A stretch of DNA of 61,741 nt, the filler included, from Sphacelaria rigidula (lineage: Eukaryota), in assembly GCA_964200075.2 (NCBI GenBank). It is 9 parts of 9 records of this genome, joined end to end, with 100 filler letters (N's around TTAATTAATTAA, not from the genome) between each part and the next. Parts side by side here need not be neighbours in the genome. Positions count along the whole stretch, not along the records: positions 54,972 to 61,741 come from CAXNAA020018164.1; 8 more parts are not named here. One strand, given 5' to 3'. The notes under the pieces were generated by a model. It did no database searches. It worked only from the letters and a program-made list of their open reading frames with translations, and had not been told where the DNA came from. The position numbers and the translations under genes were made by a program. Positions 4,442 through 60,620 of this stretch are shown here, one piece after another. Numbering within the stretch: position 1 is the stretch's first letter; every line of letters begins with the position of its first letter.

Positions 4442-6081
4442 CTGGGATCTTTAAGCCTGGCAGCTGCGTCAGCCGCTTTTTCCCACGATTTGGTCTCTAG
4501 ATACAGCTCGTATCGGTCCTCCATCTGAGGTATCTGTTGACATGGGGTGGCGCACATTGCAAGTTTCCCGCGCAGGAGCGAGGAACGAACAGTCACAGCA
4601 CCGAGGTAGGCTGTAAGCCTGGACACTATGGCTTGTTGATGAACCCAGGAGCACGGAGCACGTGCACAAGGAATAGACATGACCCACAAAACGAAGCGAA
4701 GGTAAGGCGGAAACCGCTGAGTGCTACTGTACTACTGTTCTATTGTGCTATGAGCAGCAGCTTATATTTTCCTGGTTTCTACAGGTTACATTTACATTTA
4801 CATGGGGAGCATATTATAAATTGAAACATTCTCCCCCTCACTCGTGTATAAAAAAAGGGGAGGGGCACCGTTAAAAATAGTCCGTACATGTCAAGGGATA
4901 CGCAAGACTCGCTCGAGAGATTTTCCACTTGCGACAGACAGATAGAGATAGAGATACTGAGTTGGATCATGACTCGGGCGATATCACTGTCAACTCAGAG
5001 TGAGGCAAGTGATCCAGGGGAACGGTGAACAAGCCCCGCAGGCCGTAGGTTTCACGGCACGACTGACTAACCCTAGCCCTAAAGCCAACACCCCGCAATT
5101 GCAGTGTATTCTCACTCTCGTCCTGCCGACAAACACGCTAACACGCAAACACGCCACTAACCTACGAATGAAAGCACGAGTACAAGCAATAACTAACGAG
5201 CGACAAGCAACAAGCGACGAGCAACAAGCGACGAGCGACAAGCGAAAAAAAAAAAAACTGCTCGGAGACAAGAAGTAATTACGGGCATGCACCAACAGCA
5301 AGCCACACCACCAAAAAAGTACAGCGACGCAACAACGAAAAATCGACAGATAACTCGAAAAAAAACATATTTCCCCCTTCTTGTCCGGGGCGACACTCAA
5401 CTCATCATGTCAATTCAGTTAATGAAAAGTCTGGTCAAGTTATGGAAAATCTAGTCAAGCCATGTTAAGTCATGGAAAGATCGGATACTCACTCTCTCGA
5501 TGTAGCCGTCGATGTAACGTTCTGTGTCATCCCCCGCCATTCCCGACCGCATGTGCCGCATGCACGCAAGAGCGAAGGGCTTGTAGCCGATAGGGCTCTT
5601 TTTGTCGTTGGAGAACTTTCTCAGGGCTTCCCAATCCCCCACCGAGGCAAGCGCCTGTAGTAACAAGCGAAAGAGACAAATCGGAAGCCTTTCAGCATCC
5701 ACGCTTTCCGACACCCCGCGAGGAGTGGCATATCTTTCAGTTCGACGAGGGTTAACCCCAGTTCGTAGCCCCAAATTCATGGTTGACACACATTTTGAAA
5801 AATAACGCCAACCCTGACACCCCAAGCCTAGCCAAGATAAGAATATCGCCGAAGAAAAGAAGGCAACGCGAACATGCTGGACTTTCACTTTGATCTTGAT
5901 GTGCCAGAAGCGCTTGTCCGGTACCCTGAAGCGCTTCTGCAAGGACGAAGCCTCGGCCACTAATCCGTCTCGCTTCTTGCTGCCCCCCGGCTGCGTGGCG
6001 CCGACCACGATCAGATGGTACAGCGTCTCGCTCAACGACATATCAACAAACACATCCAGCCCTGTTTTCCGCTCCAGATCT
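4442..6081 (-). CDS. VPS16: Vacuolar protein sorting 16 (HOPS/CORVET subunit), C-terminal exons; 5' part not on this contig
   Basis: Exons 6081-5889, 5654-5493 and 4533-4442 all have AG/GT boundaries and join in phase. They give [24 protein letters not shown]...[43 protein letters not shown]...[34 protein letters not shown]. FxVPDKRFW, KKSPIGYxPF and the closing helices are diagnostic of the Vps16 C-terminal domain. Confidence 0.9.
5197..5244. repeat. Heptamer tandem repeat (GCGACAA/GCAACAA/GCGACGA) in a VPS16 intron
   Basis: About 7 degenerate 7-bp units. Confidence 0.75.
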
Positions 6082-6473
6082 CTGATGAAGAAACGAATAA
6101 AAAAAAAGGAACATCGGCGGATGCGGTATTATATGTAAATATATTTACTGTGTTTTTTGTGAGCAAGTGTGGCAAGATCGGCATAGGAGCCACAGTCCAA
6201 TGACATGTGTTTGAATACTGAGAGCATTAGGTGGAGGGAAACACGGCTTCGATTTCACCATATGCGTGTAGTTTGGTTTTTTCTGCCCTCAGAAGTATCT
6301 GCAGTAGTCTGATTCCTTCCCTTGTGATATACCGGACCCGAGTAGTACAAAAAAAAAAATGGCTGAGAGTCTTGGAAGAGGACCTATGCCGTGCGGGGAA
6401 TGGAGTGCTGATGGTCATGATCAAACCCGCGATGCCAAAATATAAAGCATGTACTACAGTCTGCAAATATCGA

Positions 6474-8539: not shown

Positions 8540-8813
8540 TCTGCAGAAAGGTGGAGGTCTGCTCATAGCACACCGAGAACGTTATAGTGAATGCTCAACA
8601 AAAGGCGTGCTGCAGGGAGGGCTGCTTCAAGATAGCGTCGTTTGGGCTGGCGGGAAGCGGGGAGAGAGAGTTCCGCTCACAGCATGCCGAGGACAGAATG
8701 GTGAATGTCAGGAACAAGTCGTGGGCCGCAGAGAGGGCTGCTTCATAACCCCGTCGTTTCGGTTGGCGGGAAGCAAGAAGGCGCAGTTTTGCTCATAGCA
8801 CGCCGAGGACGGA
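8540..8813 (+). pseudogene. Degenerate EsV-1-7 repeats upstream of the intact ORF
   Basis: About 2.5 more 114-bp units (CCREGCFKIASFGLAG...). They contain TAG stops at the CSQH position (tgctcaTAGca, twice) and a frameshift near 8720. Confidence 0.8.
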
Positions 8814-10391
8814 ATGGTGAATGTCAAGAACAAGACGTGCTGCAGAGAGGGCTGTTTGAAGCTAGCATCCCGGGGCTTTGCGGGAATCAAGAAGGCGGAG
8901 TTCTGCTCACAGCACGTCGAGGACGGAATGGTTGATGTTAGGGACAAGACGTGCTGCGGAGAGGGCTGCTTCAAGCGGGCGTCGTTTGGGTTGGCGGGAA
9001 GCAGGAAGGCGGAGTTCTGCGCACAGCACGCCGAGGACGGGATGATGAATGTCGTCAACAAAATGTGCTGCAGGGAGGGCTGCTTGAAGATACCGTCTTT
9101 TGGGTTGGCGGGAAGCAGGAAGGCGAAGTTCTGCTCACAGCACGCCGAAAACGGAATGGTGAGTGTCAAGGGCAATGCGTGCTGCAGAGAGGGCTGCTTC
9201 AAGATTGCGTCGTTTGGGCTGGCGGTCAACAAGAAGGCGAAGTTCTGCTCGCAGCACGTCGACGACGAAATGGTTGATGTCAAGAACGAGACGTGCTGCA
9301 GAGAAGGTTGCTCCAAGCGGCCGTCGTTTGGTCTGGCAGGAAGCAAGAGGACGGAGTTCTGCCCACAGCACGCCGAGGACGGAATGGTGAATGTCAAGAA
9401 CAAGACGTGCTGCAGAGAGGGCTGCCTCAAGCTACCGTCGTTTGAGTTTGCGGGAAGCAAGAAGGCAGAATTCTGCTCACATCACGCCGGAGACAGGATG
9501 GTGAATGTCGTCAACAAAACGTGCTGCAGGGAGGGCTACTTGAAGAGAGCGACGTGTGGGTTGGCGGGAAGCAGGAAAGTGGAATTCTGCTCACAACATG
9601 CCGGAGAGGGCATGGTTAATGTCGAGAAGAAGACGTGCCGCACAGAGGGCTGCTCTAGCATGGCATCGTTTGGGTTGGCGGGAAGCAAGAAGACGGAGTT
9701 CTGCCCACAGCACGCCGAGGGCGGGATGGTGAATGTCGTCAACAAGACGTGCTGCAGAGAGGGCTGCTTGAAGAGAGCGACGTGGGGGTTGGCGGGAAGC
9801 AAGAAGGCGGGGTTCTGCTCACAGCACGCCGAGGACGGGATGATGAATACCGTCAACAAGACGTGCTACAGAGAGGGCTGCTTGAAGAGAGCGTCGTTTG
9901 GGTTGGCGGGAAGCAGGAAGGCGGAATTCTGCTCAGAGCATGCCGGAGAGGGCATGGTTAATGTCACGAAGAAGACGTGCTGCAGAGAGGGCTGCTTGAA
10001 GAGAGCCTCCTGGGGGTTGGCGGGAAGCAAGAAGGCGGAGTTCTGCCCACAGCACGCCCACAGCGAGATGGTGAGCGTCCGCTCCAGGAAAAATGTCCGA
10101 TCAGCAGCTTGCCGTTTTGAACAACCGGCGATACGCACGAAAAAGGTGAAGCTAGAGATAGCTGTGCAAAAGTCAAATGACAGTGGGGGATATCCGAGAC
10201 GGTCACGCATTCACGGAATGCGGCAATCCAAGCAGGGTGAGGCTCCGAAGAGTAACACCACAAAGGGAGCTGGGCTCACTTCTACGACTGGTGAACTATC
10301 TACGGAGCAAGTTGCCCGTAGCATGACCACCGCAGGCGTTCTGATGTGCGAGGGCGTGACGAACGTGAAGTCAGAGATGAGCGTTCCATAG
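8814..10391 (+). CDS. EsV-1-7 domain (cysteine-rich repeat) protein, 525 aa, intronless
   Basis: 11 tandem 38-aa repeats, consensus MVNVxxKTCCREGCxKxxSFGLAGSxKAEFCSQHAEDG (C-x4-C...C-x2-H), then a basic low-complexity tail ending VKSEM. This matches the EsV-1-7 family of phaeoviruses and brown algae. The true start may lie upstream in the disrupted repeats. Confidence 0.88.
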   Translation: MVNVKNKTCCREGCLKLASRGFAGIKKAEFCSQHVEDGMVDVRDKTCCGEGCFKRASFGLAGSRKAEFCAQHAEDGMMNVVNKMCCREGCLKIPSFGLAGSRKAKFCSQHAENGMVSVKGNACCREGCFKIASFGLAVNKKAKFCSQHVDDEMVDVKNETCCREGCSKRPSFGLAGSKRTEFCPQHAEDGMVNVKNKTCCREGCLKLPSFEFAGSKKAEFCSHHAGDRMVNVVNKTCCREGYLKRATCGLAGSRKVEFCSQHAGEGMVNVEKKTCRTEGCSSMASFGLAGSKKTEFCPQHAEGGMVNVVNKTCCREGCLKRATWGLAGSKKAGFCSQHAEDGMMNTVNKTCYREGCLKRASFGLAGSRKAEFCSEHAGEGMVNVTKKTCCREGCLKRASWGLAGSKKAEFCPQHAHSEMVSVRSRKNVRSAACRFEQPAIRTKKVKLEIAVQKSNDSGGYPRRSRIHGMRQSKQGEAPKSNTTKGAGLTSTTGELSTEQVARSMTTAGVLMCEGVTNVKSEMSVP

Positions 10392-12712: not shown

Positions 12713-13146
12713 AACACGGGATCTTACAAATTGGGGATGGATCTTTTATTGGGGATGAGAAAGCAGGAGGATCAAAATCTTCGCATCCACACCAAATGTT
12801 GGAAATATGGTTCCATTTCTTCAACTTCTGATAGCAATTGACAACTGCTACACGCAATAGAAATATGGATTTCGATTACCGAAATGTTGGGGTTCTAGGT
12901 GAAAATCCAATTTCGGAACCATTTTGGCCTTTTTCGAAATTTCCGAAATTGGATTTTCACCTAGAACCCCAACATTTCGGTGATCGGAATCCAAATTTCT
13001 ATTGCGTGTAGCAGTTGTCAATTGCTATCAGAAGTTGAAGAAATGGAACCATATTTCCAACATTTGGTGTGGATGCGAAGATTTTAATCCTCCTGCTTTC
13101 TCATCCCCAATAAAAGATCAATCCCCAATTTGTAAGATCCCGTGTT
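12713..13146. mobile_element. Fold-back / MITE-like palindromic element, copy B
   Basis: Arms 12713-12918 and 12941-13146 (AACACGGGATCTTACAAATTGGGG...CCCCAATTTGTAAGATCCCGTGTT) are near-perfect inverted repeats with a 22-bp loop. The ORF track shows the same peptide (MRVAVVNCYQKLKKW...) on both strands. No clear TSD. Confidence 0.88.
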
Positions 13147-14154: not shown

Positions 14155-15042
14155 TTACCTCCCGTTTCGAATCTGCTCCCATATCCCGTCTATTTTCCTC
14201 TTCGTATCAAACCGGAAGCTCACGTACTGCTTGCCGTGCTGCCAGAAAAACTCGATCGGCTGAAAGCTGGGCACGTACGGTGGAGTCCACATTAACTCTC
14301 GTCCTTGCCAGTACATGCACCGCTCCACTTTTTCCGGGAGCTTTTCGGCGTGATGAACCTCAAAGTACGCCCGCATAGCCAACGCAATCTCCTCCTTACT
14401 CACGCTGTTGCCGACTTTAGAGTTGGCTTGCGGGGAAACATCGCCGGGCTCTGGTACATACATGTTGCGCGTCGTGGTCACCATAACGCCGCTGCTGTTC
14501 TTGGCGCACTCCGCCTTGATCCATGAAACCCTGTAATTCTGCAACAGCTCCGTGTTGTATTTTTTGCAGTTGGACTCGGGTACCCTCACCTCCTCGTCAA
14601 ATTCATGCTGATACGATGCGTTGTCGAGGACCAGAATCATCTTGTCGCCGAACACCTCCCTGAAAACCGGCGTGAGGCGCTTCTCAAGCCAATCCATAAA
14701 CATTTTGTGCGTCATAGCGTCGTGACGATCACCTTTCCCGTTTTTTGCCTGCTATAGGCCCTCATCCGTTCTCCCCATCTCTCCGGCCCCCACTCTCCCC
14801 GTGCAATTCGTCTTCGGCGTGAAAGGGCCCTCGGGAGTTTGAAAATGATCATTCCCGCGGGTCACCAACGGGCCGTGCTTGGTGGTGGCATGGACCATAA
14901 TCATACTGTGACCCTTTCCGGATGTCCTCCTCATTCCATCCTGCACGACGCCTTCTCCGTCTGTGAAAAAGTACGAGTAAGCCGAGTCGTGCAGCTGACG
15001 GACAAAGCTTTCGTCCATGTGAAACAAGGATTGCTTGCTCAT
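14155..15042 (-). pseudogene. DDE transposase catalytic region (Sailor-like), disrupted
   Basis: ORF 14752-15042 holds the first Asp (MDESF). ORF 14155-14715 holds LDNASY...PIE. A stop or frameshift separates them. Confidence 0.85.
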
Positions 15043-15819
15043 CGTCCTGCGCGATCGCCCTCGCTACCTCCGCCGGGAAGCAACGACTACGTGCTTCCCT
15101 GGTCTCATTCATGGGAAGGACTTGATCCTTCCTCGCCGACGCCTGTACCCAAGCCTGTGCAGGAGGGCCCTCACCGCGCGGTTTCATATTTGTCCGTCAT
15201 CCGTATCCTCTATCCACTCTCCAACTGTGCGTCTGAGACTCGATTAGCGGGCGGGGAAATGGAACTGTGATGTCTTGGATGATGGCCAAAATAAGCGTGC
15301 ATTGCAAGTAGTCTTGGGCTAACAAGAACGCTTCCACGTTCACGTGGTACTGGCATTGTAAGCCCAAGACTACTTGCAATGCACGCTTATTTTGGCCATC
15401 ATCCAAAGACATCACAGTTCCATTTCCCCGCCCGCTAATCGAGTCTTCAGACGCACAGTTGGAGAGTGGATAGAGGATACGGATGACGGACAAATATGAA
15501 ACCGCGCGGTGAGGGCCCTCCTGCACAGGCTCGGGTACAGGCGTCGGCGAGGAAGGATCAAATCCCCCCCATGAATGAGACCAGGGAAGCACGTAGTCGT
15601 TGCTTCCCGGCGGAGGTAGCGAGGGCGATCGCGCAGGAAGATGAGCAAGCAATCCTTGTTTCACATGGACGAAAGCTTTGTCCGTCAGCTGCACGACTCG
15701 GCTTACTCGTACTTTTTCACAGACGGAGAAGGCGTCGTGCAGGATGGAATGAGGCGGACATCCGGAAAGGGTCACAGTACGATTATGGTCCATGCCATCA
15801 CCAAGCACGGCCCATTGGT
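14864..15819. repeat. Long inverted duplication of transposase sequence
   Basis: Arms 14864-15320 and 15361-15819 with a 40-bp loop. About 11 differences counted by eye. The ORF track shows mirrored ORFs (MSKQSLFHMDESF on both strands). Confidence 0.95.
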
Positions 15820-34359: not shown

Positions 34360-34784
34360 CCATGTCGGTTGATGTTCTCTTGAGACGTGATAGCTGGCTA
34401 CGTTTTTCCACACATACATACACGACAAACTCACCTGTTTCGAACCGATCACTGACAGGCAGATTGAAATTGGGACATCACGACGCGGGTCCAGGGGCTC
34501 AGGCCTATGTCGATGACCCAACACAAACAGGTGATGCTTTTCGACTGTATTATGTTGGAGACCACGTCGTCTCTCTGTCCCGTGAACCTCAACACATGCA
34601 TGTGAATCTTGTGAGACGGAGCGGATCCCCCGCCCTCACTGGACAGTACTTGGTCGACTTAACCAATCCCAACCAAACCCCAGACGGTATTCCCCTCTTT
34701 GATCAGACCGATGTATTTGTCCATGAGGGTCGGTAATTCATACCCCTCACGTCCTCTGCATGTCTCGATGTCCTCACTGGTCAG

Positions 34785-35810
34785 TTGCTAGGTTTTGCTC
34801 AAGCGCCCCTCCTACGGGCAGCCTTGTCGAATGTATGTCTGAAGGTGCCACCGCAAACATCATCAGACAGCTCAGAGACACACGGTTCCACTTCGTTCAA
34901 CAAGACTGACCCCATGGTTGTGGACGAATCGACTAATGCGCCTGACACAGACCCTCCGACTGCCTTACTAGATACAGTCTGGCCAGAGCAACGTGTTAGT
35001 TTTCAACCATTATGGGATGAAATTCCCCCCCATTTGAGACACATTGCGTTTGATTTATCTGGTGAGGGTTGGACACCCACGGTGATTGATCGGTTGTGCT
35101 CCATCTTGATACGACAAACTGAACGGTTTTCCAAATCGTCAACGGATTTAGGCCGCTGCAACGCTATACCGTTCAAAATCAACTTTCCTGATGGTACGAC
35201 ACCTATCGCTATGCGTCCGTACCGTACAAACCCTCTTCTAGCGGGTAAAATTCAAGTAATTCTCGACGAATACTTGTCCGCCGGGTTAATACGGCACTCA
35301 ACGTCTCCATGGGCCTCGCCTTTGGTAGTCGGCCGGAAGAAGAATGGTAAGATCCGACTGACCATCAATTATCAACGATTGAACGCAGTCACCAAAATCG
35401 CACGTCTGCCTCTTCCCCGGATAGATGGAATCATCGACTCCCTCGGTGGGGGCAAAGTTTTTTCGAACTTCGACATGCAGTCCGGTTACCACCAACTGGT
35501 GATGGATCCGCACACTATCGAGCTGACGGCGTTTTGCACCCCGTCAGGTCTATATGAGTGGCTGATCACTCCACAAGGTGCCGCCGGCGCCCCAGGAGCG
35601 TTCCAACGTGGAATGTTTCGCGTCATTGATGGACTGTCCAAATACCGCATGTACCTCGACGATGCGGTGGTTCACGGCAGTACACCTCCTGAGCACGTCA
35701 AACATTTGGCGTCCTTCTCTGCTCGTTTTGAACAACACAATTTGAAGCTCGCCTCATCCAAATCCCGCATTGGAGTCACGCGCATCGGGTTCCTAGGTCA
35801 TTCTCATTGA
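34785..35810 (+). pseudogene. Gypsy reverse transcriptase
   Basis: Motifs GLIRHSTSPWASPLVV, RLTINYQRLN, LPRIDGIID, FDMQSGYHQL, TAFCTPSGLYEW, YLDD and GFLGH. It ends at a stop with no RNase H domain after it. Confidence 0.92.
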
Positions 35811-36546
35811 ACAACACATCGGCACTCCTTGAAAATAAGCTGACGCCTTGGGCTCACGCTTCTGTTTCGGGCAGTTTGGCCTCACGATCGTTATGTTCAG
35901 TTGGGAGTGAAATCCGTGCAACTGCCGGCGGGTATGATCAATTTCGTGCGTCTGGTCATCGGATGGTTTGCACTGTAGAGCCGGTCTCTACTGACTGCGT
36001 CCTCCCGCTTCAAGTCCGAGACCTCATCCCGAGCCGGACCCCAAGACGCCGGGCCACGGAAACGGCTGCCGCCCTGGCAGCAGCCGGCCCAGACCTCCCA
36101 ATCCCCAACCCCATTCCAGTCCCCGATAGCCTCCTTGCGCCCCCGCTACCTCCACGGCGCAAAACCCCCAGAAAATCGACACCTTCCAAACCACCTCTGC
36201 CCACCATAGTCGAGACCTCGACTGTGCCTCCCCCACCCCGTGTAGTACCACCTCCGGTACCACACCATCCGACACCCTCCATAACGTAGGAATAGAGGTG
36301 AACGTTCCGTTTGAGAATACACTGACCACCCCTTCTGACCTTGATCCAAATAGCGCCTCGTGTCCATCCCACAGCGATTCGATCCCCTGCGTTTTGGACA
36401 ACCCCTCCGTCAGTGTATTGAAGGATTTGACCCTCTTTTCTCACGCCGATTGGGCCCGGGAACAGCAACCTGAACCTGCTTGTAGAGCAGCTATACATTA
36501 ATTATCCAAAGGATGCCCCTCCTCCTTTCCAGAAACTGAGTTCTTT

Positions 36547-37815
36547 TTGCCAGTAGGGCCCCACCGAGCCCCCACACAGGATGAAGTTACTGAATTATCG
36601 CGTAAAGGCATGCTTTACACGGATGATGATGGCGTTGTTCTTTTAGTTCACCGGCCCCCCACGAACCCTCCTGGAGGGAAATCTACAAGTAGTCACGCCC
36701 GTTTGTTGGGTGATGTCCCCGTACGTATTTATGTTCCGATGCTTCTGCGTCCATGGGTTCTCCATGAATGCCACTCTCAAGCATCCACGCATCTAGGCGT
36801 CGCTAGGACATCTCAGATGCTTCAACGTTTTTTTTTGGTGGATTTGTATGGACCAATGTGTGCGTTGGTGGGTTCGGCGGTGTCTTCTTTGCCAAGCACG
36901 CAAAACTTCACGTCAAACAGTTAGATGGCCGGTAATCTCTATGCCCCTTCCCAATGGGCCTGGTGAAATAGTTTCATGGGACTACTTTGGCCCCCTGCCC
37001 CTCACTGATAGTGGTAACAAGTATATTTTGTTGTGTATGGATCGGTTCAGTCGACATGCTGTGATGAATGCTGTTTCAGAGGCCAATTATAGTGCAGAAG
37101 GGACTGCCAACGTCCTTGTGTACACATACATCCCTCAGTGGAGGGTCCCCAAAGGTTTGTTATCCGATAACGGCCCACATTTTGCCGGCAAACTTTCTGC
37201 CGCGATCAATAATCTCCTGGGTGCCCATCGTATTTTTACTTGTTCATACCATCCGTCCACAAACGGTGGGACCGAACGAGTTAATCACACGATGGCGCAA
37301 ATGCTTGCCACAGTGACCAATGAGCGACAAACGGACTGGGACCTGCACTTCCCCCTCGTCCAAATGAACTACAACAACCCCGTCAATGCCGCCACAGGCT
37401 TGGCTCCCAATGAAGTTATATTGGTCGTATGCCCAGGCTGCCATTGACAGTGTTCGACAGGAAACCCCCTGGTGGTCATCAGAGTTTGGATCAGGATATC
37501 GTGGAGTATCATATGTCTGTTAGTAATCGTCTTCGTCTTGCATATGAGGTGGTACGGGAGCAGAATTTGATTAACGCAGCAAAGGTAGCTAAGGCAAACC
37601 GCGTGTTGGATGATGCAGTGAACAAACGTCCGGTCTACAAAGTAGGTGACTGGGCATGGGTGTATAACGATGTGAGAACTGTAACCCAAGGTGCGAGCTC
37701 TGCTAAGTCGTCGTCGGGTAAGGTGTTGAAGTCGAAGCTTTGCTTGAATTGGACTGGTCCTTGGAAGATCTTGGCAGTTGGGCCCTGTGATACCGCCCTG
37801 ACGATAAACCAATAG
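36547..37815 (+). pseudogene. Gypsy integrase (HHCC + DDE + GPY/F), frameshifted
   Basis: Motifs HECH...HLGVART, CLLCQARK, WDYFGPLP, SDNGPHF, YHPSTNGGTERVNHT and WTGPWKI, spread over three frames. Confidence 0.92.
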
Positions 37816-38053
37816 GTGAGAAACTTTTGGATTTGGATTTTCCCACGGATGAACCTGGCGTCAAACCCAAAAACCGGGTCTCGATGCTTCGGTGCAAGCC
37901 GTGTCTGCCCCATCACGACACTAGTGACCTGCCCAAGCAATTGCCTATGGGGCTCAGTCAGTATGTGCTAACCAGGTATGCGGCGAAATCCCCCCCGTAC
38001 CACATGAGGGTCGAAGACGCTGACGGTCCTCTTGAACGTGTAGTGGTCGCATC

Positions 38054-38623
38054 TTGGGCCACCAATTAGTTCGAGGTCGAGGCGGTAAAATTGCGGTTGT
38101 GTATCAGACTCACTGGAAAGGCCTCATGCGTGTTACGTGGGAACGGGAGGAGGATTTGCGTCATTTTCGAAGAGAGATACTTTCATACTGGGTCGGAGAT
38201 GTCGTCCAACACCGCCCGTTGAACAAACGATATAGGTCTATGCGAAAAGGCGCAGCAGCTCGTGAACTGGCCCGAAAACACTCGGCACGATTTTTCATTT
38301 CGGGCTATGGTCTGATTTCTCGTTCGCGATACCTGCGCTCTTTTTCGAAGAAACGTTTGCCGGAAGGTGCATATTTTTGGTACAGGGCTATGGATTCGCG
38401 GTGGTGGCTGGGGAAGACTCATTTGATAGATCCTGAGGCGGACGATCCCTACTACATCCGCTTCCTCGATGACCCGGGTCCTCTCAAGATCCGTCTCAAC
38501 GACGATTACTACACCGAGATGCCGACCGCTCGCCGAGGACCTTGGTGCCTACAACGACACGACAAAGGGGTCATCGACACAGCTGTCTTGCGCAACCCCG
38601 ACACGGCGTGGGACACGGAATAA
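38054..38623 (+). pseudogene. Integrase C-terminus: chromodomain plus a Tudor/SH3-like module
   Basis: GHQLVRGRGGKIAVVYQTHWKGLMRVTWEREEDL fits the chromodomain YxxxWxG...TWE pattern. It is followed by GAYFWYRAMDSRWWLGK...YYIRFLDDPGP. Confidence 0.65.
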
Positions 38624-54971: not shown

Positions 54972-57290
54972 TACCCTGCCACAAGGATGTCTAACCACCG
55001 GGGCCTGCGGGGGGGGTGGGCATCCTCATTTGTTGCTTGCCTTAGTCATTTGACCGTTGACCACGCATCCCTTTCGAGACGGAGCACCGATCCTACTTCT
55101 AATAGAGACACCTTCAACATTTCGGTGCTCATCACGATTCTTCCATACATTGCACAAAAACGTTGACACATCTTATGCCCGTCTTGTTGGAGGCTCCTGG
55201 GGGGTGGTCGTTTCTGGAACATGGTGAAGATCACGTGATTGTCCACACGATGAAGCGGTGGCGCTGTGACGCTCAAACACGGCCATGAAAACCGCAGGAT
55301 CGGATGGAGTTCGAAATTCCCAGGATTGTGTTCTGTGGGGTATACCCGGCAGTGGAGGATTTGTGGTCGGTGTACCGAGTACTCCAGTATGGTTCGGAAG
55401 GTCATTTACCGATAAGGTACCTTTTTTAAGCTCATGTAAATATTGAATATCCGATTTTTAGCCGGTATACCCTGCAGAACATAATCTTGGAAATTTCGGT
55501 GTTGTACACGAGACAGTATAAACGTTAAAGGCAGTAAATAAGTAAAGCAGTAGTTAAAGGCAGCAAAGAATTACATCGGATTGAGGAGGATCGCCGCGGT
55601 CTCCAGCAAGAGGATGTGGTGGCCGCCGGGCCGTCCGTCATTGCCGGCGTTGACGCTTGTCACATCGTCGCTGCTGCCGCCGCTGCAGCCGCAGCGGGCA
55701 GGGGTCAAGCGGACATAATCTGGTGCGGCCGTGCAGGCGATGAGCGGACGGTCGGTATGAGGTGCATGTCCTGCAGACAGATCGAAAGGATGACTATCTA
55801 CCGTGGTCGACGCGTCGAGCGATCTTACCAAGATGTGTTGAGACCTGAAGGCTCGTCCACTGCCTTCGTGAGGTATAGTCAACACCCGAGGAAACGGTGA
55901 CTACTATAGAGACCCTTTCATCCGAGGAACGAGTGATTGTCACCCGTCAGATGAAGAGGAAATGCAGGTGGAAACAGCCGTCAGCACAGAAGTGTTGCGA
56001 TGGGTCATCGGCGGCAAGACCGCAGAACCTGACAACAGTAGCAACTCCGAAAAACAAGGATGCTGCAGTCTCAGACATTCAAAGAAACAAGCTGAGAGGC
56101 GCGGGAGTGGGAGTGCAGTTCTCACGAAAGATGGATTCGATCCTGGGCGATCTGGACAAGCTGCTGGACAGGCCATTCGCTACAGCGCCGTTGGATGCCC
56201 GTACAAATGCCGGCATTTGCGGTGTTAGCGTTGCGGCGAAATATCACCAGGTGGCACCCCGTGGGAGATGGAGCTGAAAGGGAACCTTATACGGACAGGG
56301 TTATTCTCGGTCTGTACATGGTCGACCGCGCAAACGCTGTTGTCCATAATCTTTTTAGCGACGGGAAGTATCCTACTGGCGGTAAGTACAACGTATAACG
56401 TGCGCCGGACGGGCACAGGAGTGACGGAAATGACACCACGCAACGTGGCCGGCTGTAATCATTTCGAAGTGGTGAGGGTGCCGCCCAATATGTACGATGA
56501 GATCCGCCTCGAACTTGGCCTGCCGTCGCTCCGGCGGGTAACCGTCGTCACGGGAGCGACAAATATCTCACCTCTCCACAACCCTGGTACTGGCGTCCCG
56601 AAAGGGGTAATATGAGCAGTATGTAGTCTGTAATCATCTCTGGTGTTGGACAACTGAACGCCAAGGCAGGCAGTAACCTCGCTGGCCGGAGGCCAGACAC
56701 TGTACAGTCGCAGGCGAACGGGGGCCAGCACCCGCCTCTCCTTAGTGGAGGCACAGCACCCGGGGCGGCGGACGACAACGTGGGATGTCGGCACGTGTTG
56801 AGAGGGCCCAGGAAGGAGCAAGCCTGTGGGAAAGGGAAAGCGGGGAAGTTGTATAGTGAGCCTAGAGAAATTGATGTGGAGGGCGGGACAAGAAGATTGG
56901 GCAAAATAGGAAAGGCCAAGTACGGTGAAGTTCCTGATTTCCATGATGAAGACCCCGAGTCTGATGGAGAGCTGGATATGGGCAGGATGATTAAGGCTCG
57001 GGGTGGGGGTGCCTCCTCGATTGAACATCACAAGAAGCTGTGCATATATATATATAAAAGAACGTGAATTGTGTCTGAGGACGGGTCAGGGTTTTTCTAG
57101 CACTCATTCCTATGCACATGCCCAACATCCATATTTTATGCAAAAGTCGTGTTGTCTTTCGAGAAAATAGCTCTTCTGAATCCCAAAAAGTGCCTGCTAT
57201 ACAAGTAGGTCATCTGAGGTCATCTGCGGGGGGTCGCAGCCTGAGGGTTAGTCGACCACTACATACCGCAACCACGATAGACTCTCTCGT

Positions 57291-57291
<1 letters not shown>

Positions 57292-57348
<57 letters not shown>
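57292..57348. repeat. (CA)n microsatellite
   Basis: Perfect dinucleotide run directly next to the hAT insertion site. Confidence 0.95.
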
Positions 57349-57349
<1 letters not shown>

Positions 57350-57353
57350 ACGA

Positions 57354-58898
57354 TAGGGTTGCTCATCAATCTATTCATCAGGGTTGGTTTTGATGAAAAA
57401 TATTTGAGTTTGTATCAACATCACATCAGCGCGTCGCTGATTACTTGATTATTATCAACCAATCAACTTGAATCAACCAGGTCAAAATAACTTGATTAAT
57501 CGTGATAGTTGATTTTTTCCAAGAAGAAAAGAGGCGTTTGCGTCGTGTAACGTCGTTTGTTGCCTCCAGCGCAACCATTCATCGACGGACATGTCTACTA
57601 ATCGACTCTACTCCTGAAAAGACGCGAGCAACGACGAACACACAGCAGCAAACAGCAGCAATACTCGGGCGGTTTTGGCTCTTCGTTACCACAAGTCCGC
57701 CTACACAGAACACGCGTTCGGATGCCGCAGATGAAGCTTGAACCGCAAGGTACCTGTGGGCTAGGATGGCGACGTGGGGATACACCCGCTGTGCCTTCGC
57801 CCACCACCCCAGAGCACCGCCCTCCTGGGCCACGTCTCGTGTGTGTAACGGTGTGACAGTAATGGTGCCTCTACAAAGATAAGATTGTTTCCGAGGGAGA
57901 CGTGGCCCAGGAGGGCGGTGCTCTGGGGTGGTGGGCGAAGGCACAGCGGGTGTATCCCCACGTCGCCATCCTAGCCCGCAAGTACCTTGCGGTTCAAGCT
58001 TCATCTGCGGCATCCGAACGCGTGTTCTGTGTAGGCGGACTTGTGGTGACGAAGAGCCAAAACCGCCTGAGTATTGCTGCTGTTTGCTGCTGTGTGTTCC
58101 TACACGAAAGCATGAAACATGACATCTGATTGACATCAGCGCTATCCTACCTGGTAAAGATTGCTGCTGGGCTTGTCTGGAATATGGACTACTGCTATTC
58201 ACATTTATACCTGTGGTGTGCTGTAGTTGGGGAGGGTGTCTCCAAGTACGGCTTTCAGGAAGTGGGGAAGAAAAGGAAACTTCGCGTGCATGCCGTATGT
58301 TCAAAGGCTGTTGTATCACAACATCGCACACCTTGCACAGCATGACGTGTTTTGCAGCGATACTCGCATCGCATCAATCACTTTTCTCGTCAGTCACACC
58401 CACGACGCGACAATATACACAGAGCAATATATAATATGAGCTAGTGAAATGCAACAAGGAGCTTCGTCGATAAGCGAGTGCAATTTGGGTACAGTACTAT
58501 CATCTCTTTTTTCAGACAGGTTTGAGGCGAACATGTTTCATATTTGAGAGTGCTTCGAAGTTTAACACAGCAATAGTGCAAGAAGATGGGGTGTTTGAGT
58601 ATCGATGCAGCAGGTTCAGCTAAGATATTGAACACAGCGGACTGCTGTGCTGCTGCTGTGGTCTTGCGTATGCGTACTCGTGTGCTCTACATTGTTCCAC
58701 CGACAAAATTCAGCCGATTTTTGGCTTGTGTGCTGCTTGAATGCTACCAAAATAATCAACTGTCATGATCAGTTGATTAAGAGACGTGGTGTTGATTAGT
58801 TGATTTGTATTAACTAATCATGATGATATCAAGCCGATTTGGAAGAAAATATCAAATATCAAATGAATCCCCCCCCCCAAAGTTGATGAGCAACCCTA
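57354..58898 (+). mobile_element. Non-autonomous hAT (Ac-like) transposon
   Basis: Perfect 16-bp TIRs TAGGGTTGCTCATCAA (57354-57369) and TTGATGAGCAACCCTA (58883-58898). The 8-bp flanks CACCACGA and CCCCACGT match at 6/8, consistent with a TSD. Subterminal ATCAA/TTGAT repeats are present. The internal hAT dimerisation-domain fragment reads WWAKAQRVYPHVAILARKYLAVQASSAASERVF...NRLS. Confidence 0.92.
57636..58099. repeat. Inverted duplication of the hAT dimerisation-domain sequence
   Basis: Arms 57636-57838 and 57897-58099 (203 bp each) with a 58-bp loop; 4 mismatches by eye. Confidence 0.95.
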
Positions 58899-59094
58899 CC
58901 CCACGTGATGAACGGGTCGCCGAAGAATCATTAGGCCGCCGCTACGACACGGCGATGGCGATAGCGATAGCACTCGCCATACCGCCATTCTAGGTCCGCT
59001 CACCGAGCGTTATGATGCTCGTTATGAGTACCCGACAAAACTATTTGAAGAAAAATGAAGATATTAGCGAGACGACACCGAGGAGCTCGACCTC

Positions 59095-60180
59095 TTGAAC
59101 AAACGTCGGAGTGGGCGGCCGTCGCCTTTTACTCCGAGAAAGGCCGCGGCGCTGCGGAAGGTCTCATTTACGCTCGGGCAAGTGTCCGATCAGCTGAAAG
59201 AGATCGGTGCGGAATGCGGGTTAGAGACCGTGCGGCGGTGGTTTAAGAAGGAGGGGGCGGGAAAAATTGGCTCGCCGCATCAAGCCGTCCCTTCGCGAGG
59301 CCGCGAAGATGTGCCGGGTCGATTTTATCTGCGATCAAGTATACGAGACAATCGGTGACTTCCTTGGCCAAGGAACTTCATCCGTCTGGACGAGATTTGC
59401 TTTCTTCTCGTGAGGAACAAGGGGAAGGCTCAAATCTTCCCGGGCGAAACTATTCCGAGGTCTCCCCGCGTACAGCACAGGGGCCATCTTCCGAGGAAGA
59501 TGGCGATTGTGGCAAACGCGCGGTCGGGCCCGGGACACAACTTCGACGGAAAGATCCGTGTCTGGCGCATTTGCGCCCTAGAAACGGCGCACTTGCGTCC
59601 TGGAAATGGCCGAGCGATCGTCCAAGAGAGGGAAGAGGGGGAAAGAGGGGTGAGTTCGACTGCACCACAGACACCGACTGGTGCAAGACCTGTGACCTCG
59701 ACGAACTCCTTTCTGCAATCAAGCTCAGGATACCGTGGCTACGGCCGAAGCGAGGAGTAGTGCAGCTGGACGGCGCACGCCCCCACAGGGGGGAGAACAG
59801 TCCCAAATTATTAGCTCTGCGGAGATGGGGCGAGGTTGGATGGTAGAGCTTGTTACGCAGCGTTCTCAGTTGCTTGACTTGAATATGTACGACTTGAGCT
59901 TCTGCGCATCTCCCATGCCAAGGATGTGGGGAATGAATGCCAGTTCGATCGACGAGTTAATTCAAGACTATCTTCAAGTAGTACGAAGAGTACGACGGAA
60001 AGACGTGAATGAAAGAGTGCGGCGAAGCCTCTTCAAGACTTACAACCAGACAATCCGTGAGTTGGGCGACAGCGACTTCAGTGTGGAGCATACCAGGGTC
60101 GCGGCGCGGCAAAGGGCGGGAAGGTTGGAAAGGATGGTAAAATACGACGACGAGGCCTTCACTAAGACTTTGTACTACCT
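59095..60180 (+). pseudogene. Mariner-like transposase remnant (plant-mariner DD39D type)
   Basis: Across frameshifts: KRRSGRP, ETVRRW (HTH), RLDE at 59389, PRVQH, NFDGKI, VQLDGARPH at 59769 and VTQRSQLLDLNMYDL at 59891 (compare QPxxSPDxNxxDL). The 122 nt between the second and third Asp fit D39-40D with one indel. Confidence 0.8.
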
Positions 60181-60342
60181 AGCATCAAGTTCCAGTGATG
60201 GCAAGGACGACCAACACATTTTGTTTTCACGTTTTTTCCCGCCGAGCAGGGGCGCACGGGCGAGGAACGGCGACTTTGGGGCCGACTGTTTATTTTTCGG
60301 CCGTTTGATCAAGTGGGGTAGTGTGCACAAAAGAATAAGGTC

Positions 60343-60620
60343 TCAACCACCCAAAATGCCAAGGGTTTTAAAACCATCGTCGCCTAACGCATCGGACATG
60401 GCTAAGGGCCCATGTAAACACAGCCAACTTTTCGTATGGGAGGAGGAAGTGAATATTTTACCATCATTCGTGCGCCAGATTTTTATATGCAGACAACGCT
60501 CATCTCCCTTCTTTTGCCTTTCGAGAGCTGCTGCTTCCATGGATAATAACCGCACACCGGTTATCCGTGACGATTGTGTTCCGTTTTGTTTCTGCTGGAA
60601 GGCGGCGATTGCGCGCTCAA
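60343..60620 (-). pseudogene. Possible PP2C phosphatase-like fragment
   Basis: KIWRTNDG...GPLAMSDALGDDGFKTLG resembles the PP2C LAMSRALGDxxxK motif. VTDNRCAVII in another frame weakly resembles GDSRAV. Confidence 0.25.

Follow-up and report, generated by a model that had tools for sequence, protein, structure and literature searches.

An inverted duplication of transposase DNA inside a non-autonomous hAT element of Sphacelaria rigidula: a probable repair scar

The window, the 61,741-nucleotide stretch of Sphacelaria rigidula DNA analysed here, is a chain of unrelated contigs of ~6.8 kb separated by N spacers, and the assembly searched with it comprises 244 Mb in 27,214 contigs. Near the end of the window an older dispersed repeat is interrupted by a 1545-nt element with TIRs that match at 16 of 16 positions. 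Inside the element lies a hairpin of two 203-nt arms and a 58-nt loop, the arms differing at four sites, all of them transitions. These boundaries and counts agree with an earlier note on this DNA; the coordinates of all features are collected in Table 1.

Table 1. Features of the hairpin-bearing hAT element and its host repeat, in positions of the window
Feature	Position	Strand	Remarks
Older dispersed repeat hosting the hAT element	57252-60450	+	insertion ~20 nt past apparent start codon
Left TSD copy, 8 nt	57346-57353	.	eroded (6/8 against right copy); adjoins (CA)n tract
hAT element, 1545 nt	57354-58898		G000:C18164:2383-3927
Left TIR, 16 nt	57354-57369	+	
5' subterminal region and family leader	57370-57662	+	presumed promoter side, from orientation
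Left ATCAA/TTGAT repeat zone	57370-57520		
Outer inverted microhomology, 6 nt	57636-57641	+	partner 58094-58099; predates duplication
Left arm	57636-57838	-	27 nt native leader plus 176-nt inverted copy
176-nt inverted copy of transposase C-terminal DNA	57663-57838		took the place of ~230 nt of ancestral sequence
Filler, 17 nt, at fold-back junction	57839-57855	.	
Remaining loop, 41 nt of native transposase coding DNA	57856-57896	+	
Right arm	57897-58099	+	native dimerisation-domain DNA 57897-58072, then overwritten 21-nt tract
21-nt tract, reverse complement of left leader	58073-58093		in frame
Transposase frame end, 3' region and right subterminal repeats	58100-58882	+	
Transposase stop codon	58127-58129		
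Right subterminal repeats	58750-58882		
Right TIR, 16 nt	58883-58898	-	
Right TSD copy	58899-58906	.	ancestral state

By every feature tested the element is a non-autonomous hAT. Its TIRs are identical at 16/16 positions to those of 4.3-kb elements that have a weak zf-BED match and PF05699, and it retains a transposase remnant (PF05699, E 2e-14) as well as subterminal repeats. The exact TIR occurs at 15 places in the genome, and at 25 when one mismatch is allowed (control, 2). The previously noted subterminal repeats stood up to analysis: ATCAA/TTGAT occurs eight times in 151 nt at the left end and seven times in 133 nt at the right, against shuffle means of 0.6 and 0.55, a more than 10-fold enrichment at each end that none of 2000 shuffles reached, while the interior has one in 1229 nt. 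The 5' subterminal region and leader are 75-84% identical to the left ends of family copies. Most of the transposase is missing, which is a trait of the family and not peculiar to the hairpin copy.

The TSD, which had been described as near-intact, matches at 6 of 8 positions (chance 0.004) and is better called eroded. It is nevertheless genuine, because relatives of the host repeat that lack the insertion carry a single copy of the site. That copy resembles the right-hand TSD, so it is the left TSD that has eroded, beside a (CA)n expansion. All six same-TIR relatives for which both ends could be located show a TSD of 8/8. The (CA)n tract grew at the hAT target site, within a host repeat now split into 57252-57353 and 58899-60450, and overwrote part of the left TSD. 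The host repeat has 42 matches, 41 of these at 66-82%; its two long frames gave no Pfam match, and by eye only it is Tc1/IS630-like. Read-through from a promoter of the host repeat was considered and rejected: the part upstream of 57252 is unlike the relatives and another repeat lies there.

The hairpin has a calculated fold energy of -469 kcal/mol (z -47), and its plus-strand RNA would contain a single true mismatch. PF05699 is found in both arms (E 2e-14 and 4e-11), and a profile search places it on the minus strand at 57663-57818 in the left arm. The reading of the arms as dimerisation domain holds for both, but not over their whole length: the right arm ends, on its outer side, in 21 nt derived from the 5' leader. 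The transposase is reduced as had been stated, by a family-wide loss, but not to the arms alone, for it also supplies 41 nt of loop sequence and continues beyond the right arm. These 41 nt match at 26-34 positions in 9 of 10 relatives and at 15 in the remaining one, a deletion-bearing copy. Three of the four changes between the arms lie in the left arm, and at three of the four sites the right-arm base is the state of all 10 relatives. Deamination or a RIP-like process was ruled out as the origin of the four transitions, since only one is a CpG C-to-T change and four transitions out of four is not significant (P 0.086, at a family transition share of 0.54). No Rfam match reached the gathering score within 57000-59300.

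Because the assembly is fragmentary, the palindrome could in principle be a fold-back chimera created in assembly or amplification. Contigs from 4 of 10 sequencing runs were compared; X1 is possibly the source sample, and X2 belongs to a different study. Both contain an identical 118-nt contig over the loop, filler included, with 0 differences. This contig spans the joint between filler and loop and extends 30 nt into either arm, one nucleotide less than was required for the arm junctions to count as bridged. Both junctions of the right arm are crossed, with over 90 nt to either side, by a contig from X2 (57975-58193, 0 differences), and the four left-arm alleles lie together on a separate X1 contig at flank depth. 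The X2 and X4 alleles are ~1-2% different elsewhere, and contigs from both cross the right end of the element into the same flank, although they begin 192 nt inside the element in X2 and only 30 nt inside it in X4. From these X1, X2 and X4 contigs it follows that the palindrome is genomic and the insertion common to three haplotypes. The loop contig (57809-57926) does stand at only 0.3-0.4 of flank depth in X1 and X2, with the arm junctions at full depth, as a chimera might; our guess is a library bias caused by the hairpin. Given the identical contigs from two studies and the four sites at which the arms differ, the probability of an artefact is practically negligible.

Further copies with the same palindrome were searched for genome-wide, and the hairpin copy proved to be single. 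The whole element has at least 102 matches (40 of 119 candidates scored); its long non-self matches are 75-83% identical, and the nearest relative is 89% identical in the domain. Forty-five other family contigs were examined, and the palindromic form was present in none of the 30 with at least 60 nt of domain. No other hit spans the hairpin junctions (40 of 43 candidates scored), and a 30-nt junction pattern, searched at up to 3 mismatches, has one genomic match, its own locus. In depth the junction contigs equal the unique flank (X1: 56.6 and 65.4, flank 62.5; X2: 36.4, flank 35.1), so hidden collapsed copies are unlikely. An amplified fold-back or MITE family would have many dispersed palindromic copies; here there is one, compared with 2572 candidates for the palindromic family represented at 12713-13146. 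Other inverted repeats in family copies were set aside as unrelated inserts, subterminal repeats below 100 nt or a nearby second copy. That of C20715 includes ~90 nt of non-coding element DNA, and no inverted repeat in the family duplicates the domain.

A tree built from 19 copies of the domain unites the two arms on a branch of 0.041, with arm tips of 0.004 and 0.020 and a median tip of 0.042. By these branch lengths the hairpin copy dates back as far as its family does, and the duplication is more recent, or at least the last homogenisation of the arms is. Dating by arm identity was rejected as unreliable in this genome; since arm identity is no clock here, the palindrome could date from the active period of the family. 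Two other same-TIR hAT derivatives, G000:C73 (L083 3939-5805) and G000:C18362 (L164 124-2268), are 93-95% alike and share an internal segment unmatched in the full-length elements, possibly captured DNA, which in C73 runs in frame into the dimerisation domain. The hAT family of the hairpin copy may be listed in the published TE library of PMC12477816.

Possible partners and targets of the element were sought at the levels of protein and DNA. A search with the N-terminal exon (23 of 23 candidates scored) returned four copies above 80% identity, each with a stop or frameshift, and thus all four full-length-type copies are broken in exon 1. No intact partner was seen in this fragmentary assembly, which can lose young repeats. 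Among longer proteins there was no intact homologue for a gene model, and a near-length search gave 13 unnamed PF05699 fragments. Three complete same-TIR elements of 4.3-4.7 kb are 84-91% alike mutually and 83-85% identical to the arm. Each arm contains 183 21-mers, of which family copies share at most 37 perfectly. The three complete elements share 6, 0 and 0 perfect 21-mers; when as many as 2 mismatches are tolerated the counts rise to 45, 36 and 51. PF05699 loci gave at least 139 matches (150 of 248 candidates scored); among the best 30, compared by 21-mers, one is the locus itself, seven belong to the family and 22 are without any 21-mer within 3 mismatches. The dimerisation domain is, on this comparison, conserved as protein and not as DNA.

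These results bear on the proposal in the earlier note that the element could be a mobile repressor, amplified by active transposase and silencing many hAT relatives. Its perfect TIRs, identical to those of full-length-type elements, and its subterminal motifs would suit such a role, and a DDE_3 hairpin element that exists as two dispersed copies (see below) indicates that amplification is possible in principle. Amplification fails here, however: the copy is single by assembly and by depth, other haplotypes carry it at the same site, its TSD is eroded and the four candidate partners are all broken. The singleness of the copy is one half of what the earlier note named as grounds for refutation. 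Broad silencing fares no better, with 22 of the 29 other top hAT-domain loci lacking even a 21-mer within 3 mismatches. For the current assembly the idea of a mobile broad repressor is largely refuted, and we consider it very improbable.

The origin of the hairpin can be followed from its relatives, whose alignment gives the ancestral order as leader, ~230 nt, loop, domain, 21-nt coding tract and frame end. In the hairpin copy the ~230 nt have been replaced by a 176-nt reversed copy of the domain and 17 nt of filler, a sequence that did not recur in the window or in the loci examined even with 1 mismatch allowed. The exchanged tract (span 58072-58092) matches 10 relatives at 4-7 of 21 positions and the left arm at 21 of 21. 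The 6-nt inverted match was scored in 12 family copies, being 6/6 in three, 5/6 in seven and 4/6 in two, and the ancestral spacing to it is 21 nt in 9 of the 12. Copying has therefore run in both directions, the domain having been copied leftward and a tract of the leader into the right arm.

Our preferred reading, to which we assign a probability of roughly 0.7, is that an old Ds-like non-autonomous hAT copy gained an inverted duplication in place, and that the hairpin is a repair scar with no likely regulatory role at present. Fold-back repair followed by quasi-palindrome correction would be the simplest account, and the products of both can be seen at the locus. In a first step, a break inside the element would have been repaired by folding back, with 176 nt of domain DNA copied in reverse, 17 nt of filler added, the left leader rejoined at ~3 nt of microhomology and ~230 nt lost. 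In a second step, the new stem would have aligned its flanks, and a template switch would have swapped 21 nt for 21 nt, by which the palindrome came to reach the pre-existing 6-nt inverted match; donor and acceptor are evident in the sequence, and from them we infer the mechanism. The element has been immobile since the duplication. Were it transcribed from its own 5' end, the product would be an almost perfect dsRNA of 203 bp, probably accompanied by some 21-nt RNAs; since such RNAs could match only its own decayed family, the element is unlikely to regulate anything at present.

Ds-like hAT deletion derivatives with filler DNA are products of abortive gap repair. The hairpin copy resembles them in its intact ends, internal deletion, junction filler and 8-nt TSD, and differs from them in its additional internal inverted duplication and in the reciprocal 21-nt exchange. 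Quasi-palindrome template-switch mutations, reportedly described by Ripley and by Loytynoja and Goldman, likewise complete a stem by exchanging one tract for another of the same length. In yeast, templated inversions that form by fold-back at breaks share the inverted adjacent copy and the microhomology joint; they are mostly 5-34 bp (PMC11724301), compared with 176 nt here. With donor and acceptor both readable, the locus would be a clean case of a palindrome that was made and then perfected by template switching.

Repair as the explanation is favoured by the other domain-bearing contigs, 30 of 30 of which keep the domain in one orientation, and by the frequency of long hairpins in this genome. 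A background sample of 200 kb from 20 systematically picked contigs, all >10 kb, contained three short-loop palindromes (arms of 146-227 nt, 84-90%), and the window itself has two further ones, both at 98%. Against repair, none in the 200-kb sample reached 95% with arms of at least 200 nt, and the hairpin sits over coding DNA, where the transposase transcript would run. Transposase hairpins also recur in another family, which selection could explain, and young active copies may be missing from an assembly split into 27,214 contigs.

Tam3 of Antirrhinum is a hAT element. Its Stabilisers OSt and NSt are, like the hairpin copy, rearranged derivatives of a cut-and-paste element, and they produce small RNAs and repress the family to which they belong (10.1101/2024.06.24.600476). 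The same study traces these small RNAs to 5'-terminal regions, with transposase production unaffected, and describes NSt as two whole copies head to head, unlike the structure here. The maize Ac killers p1-ww-id1 and id4 are closer, being natural inverted repeats of a partial hAT element (10.1101/2020.01.07.897926; PMC13635294), and the element promoter proposed there as the driver of id4 could apply here as well (10.1101/2020.01.07.897926). However, the Ac killer arms are 1.8-3.9 kb of 5'-terminal Ac, arose through alternative transposition and form composite insertions, and the Ac killers have been shown to yield dsRNA and siRNA and to silence an active Ac in trans (10.1101/2020.01.07.897926). 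The present arms are 203 nt long, consist of 3' coding DNA and lie within a single element that has both its ends, and the search for an active target found none. Mu killer, too, is a derivative, deleted and in part duplicated, whose transposase segment is inverted; it is bounded by TIRs and present at a single locus, but it belongs to the Mutator superfamily, has arms of ~1.3 kb that include TIRA, and has been shown by genetics to silence a near-identical MuDR (PMC3440606). A literature search, mostly outside subscription papers, found no report of a brown-algal killer locus.

It is also possible that the hairpin is a killer at a single locus, transcribed and diced, which silences or silenced its own hAT family in trans and was kept on that account without ever moving. 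Its architecture fits, as does its location where the transcription unit would otherwise lie; it is an inverted duplication of part of its cognate element and is present in three haplotypes, and 36-51 of the 183 21-mers recur in full-length-type copies when 2 mismatches are tolerated. The genome encodes Argonaute and RdRP, the Piwi locus being single and intron-rich; exon-by-exon searches of the incomplete assembly gave no RNase III or Dicer_dimer match, which is not evidence of absence. In Ectocarpus, 21-nt small RNAs are found on TEs, and TEs are the origin of ~15% of the small RNAs bound by RISC (PMC12477816, PMC12867755). Levels of 5mC there are negligible, neither H3K9me nor H3K27me3 is present (PMC12477816), and few TEs change expression in ago mutants (PMC12867755). 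Further points argue against a killer: the arms are far shorter than those of Mu killer or the Ac killers, only 6, 0 and 0 perfect 21-mers are shared with the three full-length copies, and conservation of the arms across haplotypes is not significant. For the last point, a test for purifying selection gave no significant result, with 0/337 changes against 13/1187 in X2 (P 0.08) and P 0.76 in X4, both post hoc.

An active, near-identical autonomous target is the feature that fails, with four of four copies broken in an assembly that may miss young ones, and for this reason we do not class the locus as a killer; dsRNA and silencing roles are putative. We regard a killer as unlikely, though the strongest competitor to the repair scar. 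If small RNAs are made, the locus would be of the Mu killer or Ac killer type outside land plants. Run X8, RNA by guess only, yielded 14 pieces, none at 99% or above, one of them with the ancestral single-arm sequence as a loose end; they are accordingly relatives and not the hairpin locus, and they carry no weight either way on whether that locus is expressed.

The two further palindromes of the window lie in other repeats. The 435-nt fold-back element at 12713-13146 has 206-nt arms at 98% and belongs to an abundant family (2572 candidates); across nine of its copies, a sample biased to top hits, arms are 92.7% alike within a copy and 88.2% between copies. At 14158-15819, the minus strand carries the remnant of a DDE_3 (IS630/Tc1-like) transposase whose coding DNA is duplicated in inverted form as a palindrome at 14864-15819, with 373-nt outer arms at 98% that surround an inserted, common ~200-nt repeat at 15236-15446; this form was seen in the window only, and other copies are at 76-85%. 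A different inverted duplication of the same DDE_3 segment was found in two of the six contigs that match a junction query, G000:C5658 (L207 987-1810) and G000:C7746 (L208 1658-2225), which are 86-87% alike over ~3.6 kb, where the similarity stops. Because the two share one junction, this hairpin-bearing element has been duplicated at least once, putatively by transposition if its ends check out, and the pair is closer to the mobile-hairpin idea than the hAT copy is. Identity between the arms is 96.4% within one copy but 87.6% within its counterpart, compared with 87-88% between copies, so arms can homogenise with each other, as those of the first copy have done. The apparent frequency of DDE_3 hairpins is inflated, because a palindromic query favours two-armed copies.

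A wider reading takes three independent origins in two superfamilies (one hAT and two DDE_3, the latter in the same catalytic segment) to mean that in this alga, whose lineage is reported to lack DNA methylation and H3K9/H3K27 methylation, coding DNA of transposases has time and again been made into hairpin loci, which supply the single Argonaute and form the source of brown-algal TE small RNAs. We consider this improbable. If true, a dispersed killer repertoire would fill the role of piRNA clusters or RdDM elsewhere, and transposase hairpins do recur here in a lineage whose TE silencing is unexplained. Since the arms carry diagnostic bases, a small-RNA library would put the hAT hairpin and those of DDE_3 to a direct test.

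Elsewhere in the window, a 530-aa frame at 8799-10391 contains 11 EsV-1-7 cysteine-rich repeats (PF19114), which, like the single intron-rich Piwi locus, point to a brown alga. Frames at 34737-38623 resemble, by eye, what we take to be the reverse transcriptase and integrase of an LTR retrotransposon, and a minus-strand frame at 5451-6128 has stretches that are presumably like the C-terminal part of VPS16.
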